Notes: generated by a model not told the origin, from the letters alone. A stretch of DNA of 64,000 nucleotides from Nannocystis bainbridge (GCF_028368995.1 NZ_JAQNDL010000005.1:128001-192000); one strand, 5' to 3'; counted from the first letter of the stretch, positions 30,511 to 49,725 are shown. Program-made: numbers and translations.

Positions 30511-31416
30511 TCAAGGACGCGCGGGCGTACGCGACACGCTGGCCGCGTAGATGGCCGCCAGCGACAGCGCCGTGCCAGCGGCCTCGACCATCCCGAACGG
30601 CTCGGCGAACACCAGCACGCCCCACAGCGTGGCCAGCACCGGCTGCAGGAGCAGCAGCAGCGAGCCGCTCGCGGCCGGCACGTGCGGCATGCCGCGCGAG
30701 ATGAGCGCCCAGCCGCCCACGTGCGCGCCGACCCCGAGCAGCAGCAACAGGCCGAAGTCGCTGGAGCTCGCCACCGCCAGCGGCTCGCCGGTCGCCAGCG
30801 CCGCCAGCACCAGCAGCGCCGCCGCCGTCGCGCTCGACACGAACAGTGCCGCCGCGACCCCGAGCGGCCGCTCGCCGCGCTGGGCTGTCCGCAAGGACAG
30901 GTAATAACCGGCGTAGAACACACCCGTCAGCAGGCCCAGCAACACGCCCTGCAGGTGGACCGGGCTGCGCTCCAGCCCCGGCAGCGCCAGCATCGCCGTG
31001 CCGATCAAGGCCAGCAGCGCGCACACCCCGAGCCGCCGCGTCAGCCGCTCGCCGAGCAGCAGCGCCGAGAACAGCGCGACCCAGAACACCTGCGTGTTGG
31101 CCAGCAGCGTCGCCAGACCGGTGCCCGAGTACAGGATGCTCTTGTGCCACACGAACAGGTCGCCGGCGAAGCACGCGCCGGCCAGAGCCGCCCACGCGGT
31201 CGCCGGGCCGCGGCGCACGGCCTGTCCGTTCGGACCTGTCCGCGAGGACAGCCACGCCAGCGGCAGCAGAGCGGCCGCCCCGAGCCCGCAGCGGTAAGCC
31301 CCGATCGCCGCCGGCCCGAGCGCGATCCACTTGACGAACAGCGCCGTCACGCTGATCACCGCCGCCCCGAGAGCGACCAACACCAGCGGCGCGCGCGGGG
31401 GAGAAAGAGGGGCCAT
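30511..31416 (-). CDS. DMT/EamA family transporter
   Basis: About 10 TM helices in two EamA repeats; LLQPVLATLW. Confidence 0.9.
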   Translation of the reverse strand: MAPLSPPRAPLVLVALGAAVISVTALFVKWIALGPAAIGAYRCGLGAAALLPLAWLSSRTGPNGQAVRRGPATAWAALAGACFAGDLFVWHKSILYSGTGLATLLANTQVFWVALFSALLLGERLTRRLGVCALLALIGTAMLALPGLERSPVHLQGVLLGLLTGVFYAGYYLSLRTAQRGERPLGVAAALFVSSATAAALLVLAALATGEPLAVASSSDFGLLLLLGVGAHVGGWALISRGMPHVPAASGSLLLLLQPVLATLWGVLVFAEPFGMVEAAGTALSLAAIYAASVSRTPARP

Positions 31417-37094: not shown

Positions 37095-37239
37095 CCCGCG
37101 AGCACGAGTGACCACCGAGCCCGAGCCCGAGTGACCCGCGGCGCGCGCCGAACAAGTCACTCGCCGGCGCGCGCCGAACGAGTCACTCACTCCCGGCGAG
37201 CGACCCGGCGGCTCTTCAGCCCTCGCGTCCTCTCGCCGC

Positions 37240-37951
37240 TTACTCGTGCTCGCGCGACGCCGCGTTCGGATCGAGGTCCTCGAGAAAGCCCCGCGCGAAC
37301 CGGCGGTACGTCATTCGCGTGTCGCGCCGGTGGTCGACCACGACATCGCCCTGGACCTGGATCGTCCGGATCTTGTCGCCGCGCATGCCGCTGCCGGCCT
37401 GGGCCTTGCGTTCCGCGCAGCGACCCGCGCGCTCGGCCTCGCGGCGCTCCGCCGCCAGCCGCGCGCGCAACAGCTCGAGCGCCGTCTCGCGGTTGATGCT
37501 CTGGCTGCGACCGCCGTCGACGCGCACGTGGTGACCGCTCGGCTTGTGGCGCAGGTGCACCGCCGTCGAGGTCTTGTTGCGGTGCTGTCCGCCTTTGCCG
37601 CTGCCGCGGCAGAAATCCTCCTCGAGGTCCTCCGGACGGATCTCCACCGCCATCGCCGCCGCCGGCTCGAGCACCACCACCGTCACCGTGCTCGAGTGGA
37701 CGCGGCCGCGCTTCTCGGTCGGCGGCACCCGCTGCCAGCGATGACCGCCCGCCTCGTCCGCGAACCACCGCCGCGCCGCGCCGCCGGTCGCCTTGAAGCA
37801 CAGGAACCCCGGGCGCGCGTCGATCACCTCGAGGTCAAAGGCGCTCCCGCACGGCCAGCTTCTGGTACACCGCGAACTGCTCGTGCACGAGCAACTTGGC
37901 GTCGTCGCCGCCCTCGGCGGCCCGGATTTCGATGATGAGCGTGGTCTTCAT
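37240..37951 (-). CDS. Class I peptide chain release factor paralogue lacking domain 1, expressed via +1 frameshift (~236 aa)
   Basis: Frame 1 MKTTLIIEIRAAEGGDDA...RERL ends at CTT TGA C (37840-37834). The +1 frame continues DLEVIDAR...EAGGHRWQRVPPTEKRGRVHSS...GSGKGGQHRNKT...RSQSINR...GDKIRT and ends in TAA. Confidence 0.85.
37834..37849 (-). promoter_or_regulatory. prfB-type programmed +1 ribosomal frameshift cassette
   Basis: CGGGAG-CGC-CTT-TGA-C, the same geometry as the canonical prfB AGGGGG-NNN-CUU-UGA-C. Confidence 0.85.
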
Positions 37952-38058
37952 GGCTGCCTGTCCGGCCGCGCCGTCGCAAACGCGAAGCGCCACCCGGGCC
38001 GGCGCGGCCTCGATCCGCGAAGATCGGCTGCACCCGGATGGCGCGAAGGACAGGACGC

Positions 38059-38133
38059 TCAACCGCGACCGACGAGCACGCCGCCGCGCACCTGGAGGGC
38101 GCGGACGGAGCGCAGGCGGATCGCGGCGCGCAT
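38059..38133 (-). CDS. Putative leader peptide (MRAAIRLRSVRALQVRGGVLVGRG, UGA stop)
   Basis: ATG 9 nt after the -10 box; ends immediately before a structured region upstream of the RF paralogue. Confidence 0.5.
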   Translation of the reverse strand: MRAAIRLRSVRALQVRGGVLVGRG

Positions 38134-38142
38134 GACGGGGGG

Positions 38143-38171
38143 ACAATACTCGCGGCCCGGCGGCCAGGCAA
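38143..38171 (-). promoter_or_regulatory. Sigma70-like promoter of the leader/RF-paralogue unit
   Basis: TTGCCT-N17-TATTGT. Confidence 0.6.
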
Positions 38172-45560: not shown

Positions 45561-46751
<1,191 letters not shown>

Positions 46752-49629: not shown

Positions 49630-49725
49630 GCGCCTGCCCCTGCGGACAGGCGCGACCGAATCGCAGCGCCTGCCCTTTCGGACAGGCGCGACCGAATCGC
49701 AGCGCCTGCCCGTTCGGACAGGCGC
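49630..49725. repeat. Three 36-bp tandem REP-like hairpin repeats
   Basis: GCGCCTGCCCnTnCGGACAGGCGC at 49630, 49666 and 49702, with an identical linker GACCGAATCGCA. Confidence 0.9.

Follow-up and report, generated by a model that had tools for sequence, protein, structure and literature searches.

The 64,000-nucleotide (nt) stretch of DNA from Nannocystis bainbridge that is considered here (GCF_028368995.1 NZ_JAQNDL010000005.1:128001-192000; this whole stretch is referred to below as the window) carries on its minus strand the gene of an RF1-like release-factor paralogue that lacks domain 1 (37240-37951) and, ahead of it, a short leader open reading frame (ORF). The ATG of the paralogue (37949-37951) opens a frame of 38 codons that ends in GGGAG-CGC-CTT-TGA-C (37834-37848, minus strand) and is carried on in the +1 frame. 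All the elements of a prfB-type frameshift cassette are there (a Shine-Dalgarno (SD)-like element, the 3-nt spacer, CUU, the stop codon, the C after it and the +1 continuation), and the joined product of 236 amino acids has the C-terminal part of PCRF and a complete RF-1 domain (Pfam). The cassette is a first regulatory layer; the subject of this account is a candidate second layer, in which the leader ORF, and specifically the time that a ribosome spends at its stop codon, may govern initiation on the paralogue.

No NCBIfam model reaches its cut-off on the paralogue; RF1 scores highest, with 162.5 bits where the cut-off is 400. Nor does the paralogue qualify as PrfH (RF-H), since it scores 61.9 bits with TIGR03072 against a cut-off of 166.65. 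PrfH requires an upstream partner gene, according to the available part of the RF-H paper (PMC1586002); the gene upstream of the paralogue belongs to no Pfam family, has merely a weak match to a cysteine-rich repeat and is not an RtcB-type partner.

Upstream of the paralogue, and like it on the minus strand, a -35-like hexamer TTGCCT (38166-38171) and a -10-like hexamer TATTGT (38143-38148) stand 17 nt apart and agree with the consensus at only 8 of 12 positions. The leader ORF (38059-38133) begins 9 nt after the second of these, with the ATG at 38133, and runs for 24 codons to its TGA stop (38061-38059). Four nt 3' of that stop lies CCTGTCC (38054-38048), the exact complement of the SD-like GGACAGG (37963-37957) that ends 5 nt before the paralogue's ATG and forms part of the ribosome-binding site (RBS) strand (37955-37968). 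Between the two is a long stem (37987-38044), with arms of 12 nt each (38044-38033 and 37998-37987) that are 92% complementary and a variable apical part that includes an inner hairpin (CGATC at 38026-38022 with GATCG at 38015-38011). The first-pass annotation of the window had assembled these elements into a switch, in which CCTGTCC would mask the RBS across the long stem until a ribosome dwelling at, or reading through, the leader's UGA covered it; every one of the elements is present as it had described them. Two further strands figure in what follows. The last leader codons (38066-38078), about 5-17 nt 5' of the stop, are the anti-RBS strand of the RNAalifold consensus that is described below, and CGGCGCGGCC (37964-37973) is a perfect 10-nt complement (100%) of GGCCGCGCCG at 38009-38000.

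It is conservation in relatives, and not anything in the window read as a single sequence, that places the leader beyond chance. The 246 nt of the window's leader contain 18 inverted-repeat pairs of at least 7 nt, and CCTGTCC and its complement occur 34 times in the 64-kb window, against 10.5 expected from shuffles. (Some of the copies are evenly spaced, at 49644, 49680 and 49716, which are 36 nt apart; others lie at 31221 and 31235, and at 46739 and 46767.) The single-sequence fold of the leader is ordinary (z = -1.66; 10 of 200 shuffles fold as well), and the 7-bp CCTGTCC:GGACAGG helix is not in its minimum-energy form. Scans for consensus promoters and for terminators found nothing at the leader, the two hexamers falling below the scan threshold, and there is no U tract 3' of the long stem. 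Rfam has no match in the leader at E up to 1, its single match (E = 0.73) lying on the other strand, inside the coding region.

Relatives were drawn from 41 related genomes, from 401 genomes of the class (a paralogue-type match in 45), from a second family (in 30 of all its 138 genomes), from the window's own family (in 26 of 73) and from metagenome contigs, and the 74 loci with at least 300 nt of upstream sequence were analysed. A strict rule (TTGnnn, 16-18 nt, TAnnnn, an ATG or GTG 6-11 nt later and an ORF of 5-50 codons) is obeyed in 42 of these 74 upstream regions; none of their 74 reverse complements obeys it, and of 74 shuffled sequences only 1.4 do so on average. Relaxed criteria and inspection bring the loci with a leader ORF to 62 of 74, some ORFs of this larger set having been picked among candidates by the likeness of their peptide tails, a choice that was not blind. 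(At two of them, L061 and L073, a tRNA-like stretch that ARAGORN does not call lies directly upstream of the paralogue, and their assigned leader ORFs are therefore doubtful.) Homologues of the 24-codon ORF of the first-pass annotation are a recurrent feature of these loci, and ORF and promoter are kept where the upstream genes differ. The promoter-like TTGnnn/TAnnnn pair recurs at the same place in relatives, and this comparison supports a promoter directly upstream of the leader. In most loci the leader start lies 6-11 nt past the -10 hexamer; because it is so near, a leaderless, or nearly leaderless, ORF is to be expected. GUG can reportedly act as a leaderless start, from work with mycobacteria.

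The C-terminal tails of the leader peptides fall into families: ..GVL[VL]GRG in the window's group, which was aligned as nine sequences (L001, the window itself, with L007-L011, L097, L099 and L100), ..LP[AS]WHG, ..L[RH]E-x and ..SPLRKT, with ..LLDRL in three copies of the paralogue in one genome that have no frameshift. Over the last eight codons, entropy by codon position is 0.25/0.25/0.71 in the window's group and 0.48/0.17/0.89 and 0.53/0.14/0.94 in two other tail families, and the 24 nt 3' of the stop are more variable (1.2-1.5; 1.30 in the window's group). The ..L[RH]E-x family, the fourth tested, has no codon periodicity (0.93/1.05/1.08). By this comparison the leader ORF is real and bears the signature of translation. 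The gaps between leader stop and main ATG in relatives (107, 113, 120, 125 and 127 nt) differ by non-multiples of three, so that the open frame 5' of the main ATG is not coding, and for the same reason an N-terminal extension of the paralogue from the TTG at 38146 is ruled out. Two other ways of joining leader and paralogue were also set aside. Read-through of the leader UGA would continue for 36 codons to a TGA that overlaps the main ATG (ATGA; 37949-38061), but this phase is found in only 5 of 10 sequences of the window's group; and for a +1 frameshift at the leader stop, fusing it to the main ORF, neither the phase nor the open frame is conserved.

Of the 62 leader ORFs, 40 stop at UGA and 22 at UAG, and UAA is never used, which is to say that the leader stop is always one that is specific for a single release factor. 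Its surroundings are unusual too, when set against 3186 long ORFs of the window's genome that are rich in G and C at third codon positions: a T precedes the stop in 47 of 62 leaders and in 6.8% of the genome ORFs, a C follows it in 49 of 62 and in 31%, and the last codon is CTT in 8 of 62 and in 0.5%. In this the leader stop repeats the U-URR-C context that is found at the frameshift site inside the gene. UGA followed by C is a weak stop, as given in the available part of a survey of prfB (10.1101/2024.09.24.614795). Leaders are also found ahead of paralogues that have no frameshift: genome G054 has three single-frame copies (L040, L066 and L067), each with an 8-codon leader ORF ending CTT-TGA-C or CTC-TGA-C and with a second, overlapping small ORF that ends TAG-C 14 nt further on.

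Within the paralogue the same frameshift site stands at codon 35-48 in 39 of the 44 loci listed, the exceptions being L006, L052 and the three unshifted copies. Its stop codon is not always TGA: the site is CTT-TAG-C in L016, L037, L038, L042-L044, L046, L048, L051, L053, L054, L061, L064, L065 and others, and CTT-TAA-C in L074. (In L006, from genome G007, two single-base deletions relative to close relatives abolish the CTT-TGA-C arrangement; they could be an assembly error in a genome that is 80% complete, or a real change.) Leader stop and frameshift stop are of the same type in 51 of 58 informative loci, 33 of them TGA/TGA (with the disrupted L006 left out of the count) and 18 TAG/TAG. The first-pass annotation had placed the leader in series with the frameshift, and the agreement between the two stops favors that logic. 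On a protein tree, nine independent pairs differ in their frameshift stop; the leader stop has changed the same way in about 5.3 of these, has never changed the opposite way and is unchanged in 3.7, a pattern of concerted switching that is suggestive, not decisive. The decoding motif of the paralogue, ..RVPP[T/N]EKRGRVH.., does not track the stop type, being the same in TGA-type and TAG-type loci, and the leader stop is therefore more likely to read out the cell's RF1 or RF2 than the paralogue itself.

Comparison also bears on the pairing of the leader with the RBS. In the window's group, the RNAalifold consensus joins the last leader codons (38078-38066) to the SD strand (37968-37955), both in an alignment trimmed close and in one that spans the entire leader plus 45 nt of coding sequence. 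The helix counts 12 bp; 95.4% of its cells are paired over the nine sequences, against 18-51% in slid controls, and 3 of 500 shuffles are as good. The pair G38073-C37960 is compensated throughout, as CG in five sequences and GC in four: the C/G difference between SD-like elements that read GGACAGG and GGAGAGG is matched by a G/C difference in a leader codon. The helix that the first-pass annotation had proposed, CCTGTCC with GGACAGG, finds less support. Pairing extends to 80.6% of its cells, a level that 49 of 500 shuffles also reach; the central pair is kept in six of nine sequences (GC in four, CG in two) and unpaired in three; and in L010 the SD-side base is changed with CCTGTCC unchanged, giving a mismatch. 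The comparison of homologous leaders that had been proposed along with it as a check upheld the upstream ORF and failed to lift the CCTGTCC pairing above shuffles. The long stem is kept in all nine sequences, with one compensatory pair (AU in four, GC in three). The CGGCGCGGCC and GGCCGCGCCG strands are both invariant or nearly so in the same nine sequences, so that covariation is blind to their pairing, which may be an alternative, open-state one that holds the upstream half of the RBS strand.

A different arrangement is found in a group of 13 sequences with short leaders. It is a structure of 24 pairs that places the whole leader ORF in a hairpin with the main start at its base: the main start contributes a GUCAU that pairs with the first bases of the leader, the last ten leader bases are matched to a block farther downstream, and another hairpin comes directly after the stop. 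Pairing holds in 79.5% of its cells and drops to 28-45% in slid controls, there are nine double-side changes and 1 of 500 shuffles is as good, statistics that lean towards these sequences because the structure was derived from them by eye; the two terminal pairs, which join leader start to main start region, are kept in 13 of 13. A covariance model of the short leader finds one match per genome in 16 of 138 genomes: 13 are the training loci, two are new and lie directly 5' of paralogue exons at contig ends, and one is weak (E = 2.7e-4) and lies between unrelated genes. RNAalifold on MAFFT alignments gave little for the short-leader, ..WHG and ..LRKT groups. When the 62 leaders are pooled, the best ungapped complement of the RBS falls between leader start and stop+15 in 46 (30.4 expected) and from stop-21 to stop+15 in 28 (18.8 expected, P = 0.007). 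Sequestration of the RBS is supported by these comparisons in two lineages, with a partner strand that differs from the one first proposed.

These observations can be accommodated by a translational attenuator that times the stay of the ribosome at the end of the leader, and thereby senses how long termination takes, a reading for which we see about as much to say as to be said against it. It builds on the conserved ORF, stop context and pairing; where transcription would start, how the ribosome would pause and what this would do to expression are inferred, as follows. The promoter would fire a few nt before the leader start, giving a leader ORF that is leaderless or nearly so. On a leader free of ribosomes, the SD strand (37968-37955) would be taken up by the last codons (38078-38066), with CCTGTCC, a little 3' of the stop, as a possible second partner, and the long stem would hold both strands together. 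Both candidate partners of the RBS lie within about 15 nt upstream to about 12 nt downstream of the leader stop. A ribosome with a stop codon in its A site covers roughly that span. Waiting with the weak, RF2-specific UGA in the A site, the ribosome would cover both partners and leave the main RBS free for as long as the wait lasts. Slow termination would then mean more initiation on the paralogue, and the same slowness would mean more +1 shifting at CUU-UGA-C. Of the original proposal, the idea that a ribosome at the leader stop covers the anti-RBS is retained, the SD partner being indeed inside the stop footprint; its identity is not, the conserved partner in the window's group being the 3' end of the leader ORF and not CCTGTCC.

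A number of observations weigh against timing of termination as the function of the leader. The counts over loci overstate their independence because the loci are related to each other; the concordance of the two stops, tested with phylogeny, is borderline (median p 0.06) and fails in seven of the 58 loci, six mismatched and one with a TAG leader and a TAA site; the compensatory pair in the window's group amounts to one evolutionary event on the tree; and the window itself has G, not C, after its leader stop. In the short-leader group it is the 5' part of the leader that pairs with the RBS, and a ribosome at the stop would cover that part incompletely; no clear anti-RBS was found in the ..WHG-tail relatives (A4) or the ..LRKT-tail group (A5). 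Energy calculations are no more favorable. Duplex energies between stop footprint and RBS are no better than those of dinucleotide shuffles (mean z = +0.1; 2 of 62 below -1.64), and single-sequence predictions of the RBS partner from base-pair probabilities shift when more 3' sequence is included and were not used as evidence. In an equilibrium model of 40 loci in which the stop footprint is held unpaired, the mean unpaired fraction of the RBS goes only from 0.38 to 0.41, with seven loci rising by more than 0.1 and none falling; accessibility of the SD rises from 0.35 to 0.66 in the window and from 0.04 to 0.37 in L007, but five of seven sequences of the window's group show no opening.

To these must be added the 12 of 74 loci that have no recognizable leader ORF. 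They are of three kinds: a -10-like hexamer stands about 9 nt ahead of the main ATG itself (L041, L042 and L095), or the paralogue lies directly 3' of tRNA genes (L080 and L110), or it lies 3' of another gene. At the loci of the first kind, and perhaps at L075, there is no SD ahead of the main ATG, and the mRNA of the paralogue may itself be leaderless. The tRNA genes directly 5' of the paralogue are a tRNA-Ser(GCT) that ends a six-tRNA array in L080 (1290-1378), a tRNA-Ser(GCT) in L088 (851-933) and three tRNA-Lys in L110 (301-674).

Other explanations share part of this evidence. Any translation of the leader might unmask the RBS, with no sensing of termination, the regulated step being the use of a leaderless start (as a function of growth state, for example) and the stop context being incidental or there for another purpose. 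This reading, which we consider possible, though unlikely, gains from the nearness of the leader start to the -10 hexamer in most loci and from the pooled complements of the RBS, which lie somewhere in the leader ORF in 46 of 62 loci and near the stop in only 28. The short-leader structure is also in its favor: the leader's own start pairs there with the main start region, with the terminal pairs intact in 13 of 13, and access to the 5' end could for that reason be the limiting step. What it leaves unexplained is the absence of UAA among the leader stops, the U-stop-C context (47 and 49 of 62 against 6.8% and 31%), the conserved peptide tails, and the agreement of leader and frameshift stops in 51 of 58 loci with no changes in opposite directions. 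Those tails might signify instead that the leader encodes an arrest peptide, one that would prevent release at its own stop either at all times or when a small molecule or an antibiotic that inhibits termination is present, the paralogue being a back-up or resistant factor. Conservation of the C-terminal 4-8 residues within families, with synonymous codon changes, and the existence of several distinct tail families are in keeping with this, and arrest at a stop codon has precedents in the leader peptides PepNL (PMC11890864) and TnaC (PMC8429421), as described in the available parts of those papers. We regard it as quite improbable: the tails (..GRG, ..WHG, ..LRE-x and ..LRKT) differ and no single arrest motif is evident, the shortest leader, of 7 codons (L016), is short for contact with the exit tunnel, in the window's group RNA pairing puts a constraint of its own on these codons, and nothing points to a ligand.

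The switch exactly as first drawn, with CCTGTCC as the anti-RBS over the long stem, opened at or through the UGA, is very improbable. An exact 7-nt complement that is also the best ungapped RBS complement in L001 and L006-L009, and that lies within about 12 nt of the stop, where a terminating ribosome would cover it, speaks in its favor, and an anti-SD sequence directly after the stop can be read by eye in the distant L016 (CCTTTC with GAAAGG) and L058 (CCTTC). Against it stand the pairing statistics (80.6% of cells, 49 of 500 shuffles, a central pair in six of nine), the SD-side change of L010 that is uncompensated there and compensated in the leader codons in all nine sequences, the lack of the helix in the window's minimum-energy fold and the read-through phase that is not conserved. 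The possibility that there is no regulatory leader at all, that the ORF is a chance product of GC-rich DNA and the stem a terminator of the upstream gene, we hold to be negligible or nearly so. Such DNA is rich in open frames and inverted repeats, the fold z is only -1.66 and the stem lies 134 nt 3' of the stop of the upstream gene; but ORF and promoter are conserved behind differing upstream genes, the strict rule is obeyed 42 times in 74 as against never in the reverse complements, the conservation has codon periodicity, the terminator scan was negative and no U tract follows the stem, and the leader RNA model matches once per genome, at the paralogue.

The loci are chromosomal and lie among housekeeping genes. 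The convergent intergenic region that follows the paralogue's stop (37095-37239, minus strand) contains several direct repeats of a motif of about 25 nt (..GTCACTCGGGCTCGGGCTC.., ..GTGACTnGTTCGGCGCGCGCC..). Genome G000 has two full-length release-factor genes, each a single open frame with 357-364 amino acids over the matched part, and a further GGQ-domain match; its release-factor matches include C4:478961-479647, C1:146983-147624 and C1:2904656-2905066.

In ermC and cat attenuation, a strand of a translated leader ORF hides the downstream RBS, and a ribosome held in the leader frees it. The proposed timing of termination has the same outline, in that part of the leader ORF would be the partner of the downstream RBS and a ribosome on the leader would free it; translation of the upstream short ORF is supported by comparison (its position, periodicity and synonymously varying tails), and the pairing with the RBS shows covariation in two groups, with no clear partner in two others and negative energy tests. 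It differs in that the pause would be at a stop codon and be set by release-factor activity, in place of a drug-dependent arrest of elongation, in that the leader ORF is apparently leaderless, and in that the regulated gene encodes a release-factor paralogue. Tryptophan or ornithine is the signal in systems of the TnaC and SpeFL type, and the output of tnaC and speFL is Rho-dependent termination of transcription. TnaC, SpeFL and PepNL resemble the present leader in being short ORFs with a conserved C-terminal peptide that keep the ribosome at a stop specific for one release factor; here, no ligand is indicated, the output is apparently the unmasking of an RBS, and the tails belong to several unrelated families. 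Bacteria gauge RF2 activity through the prfB frameshift. The resemblance to prfB is in the proposed dwell at a weak, release-factor-specific stop in U-URR-C context, a cassette that the paralogue bears internally and whose context the leader stop copies. At the leader, the outcome would be initiation on a downstream ORF and not a change of frame, and the factor that is sensed could be another than the one the gene encodes, TGA-type and TAG-type loci having one and the same decoding motif. Leader stops also differ from prfB in being UAG in 22 of 62 loci: TAG is found in none of 8160 prfB motifs in the available part of the survey (10.1101/2024.09.24.614795). By analogy, then, the logic of the leader would be that of erm/cat attenuation joined to a pause at the termination stage of the TnaC/SpeFL/PepNL kind, with the stop context of prfB.

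A full-text literature search (supplements aside) found no account of this paralogue, nor of any leader ORF by which release-factor activity is read and initiation gated, and none is given in the available parts of the RF-H paper (PMC1586002), the 2016 recoding review (PMC5009743) and the prfB survey (10.1101/2024.09.24.614795). The available text of the review mentions a giant-virus release-factor gene and has the UAG/RF1 counterpart of an early in-frame read-through stop as unknown (PMC5009743).

If the timing of termination at the leader stop is the correct reading, these leaders would be natural and compact sensors of the rate of termination, specific for UGA or for UAG and reusable, and the family would offer some 60 natural variants, concerted UGA/UAG switches among them, as ready-made controls. 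An RF1-like paralogue would then be under two termination sensors in series, which, if the mechanism holds, would argue that its role is bound up with failing termination. Leader stop and frameshift stop together might constitute a codon-matched two-stage AND gate for slow termination by one release factor, turning on a back-up factor without domain 1 as a termination-stress response of these large-genome myxobacteria; we offer this tentatively, as something that could be so but that we would not expect. In lineages with short leaders the gate might then operate a single time on each transcript, while the transcript is being made, since the finished RNA hides the leader's own start codon as well. 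On that view the response might shield these bacteria from natural products, their own or their neighbors', by which RF1 or RF2 is trapped or inhibited.

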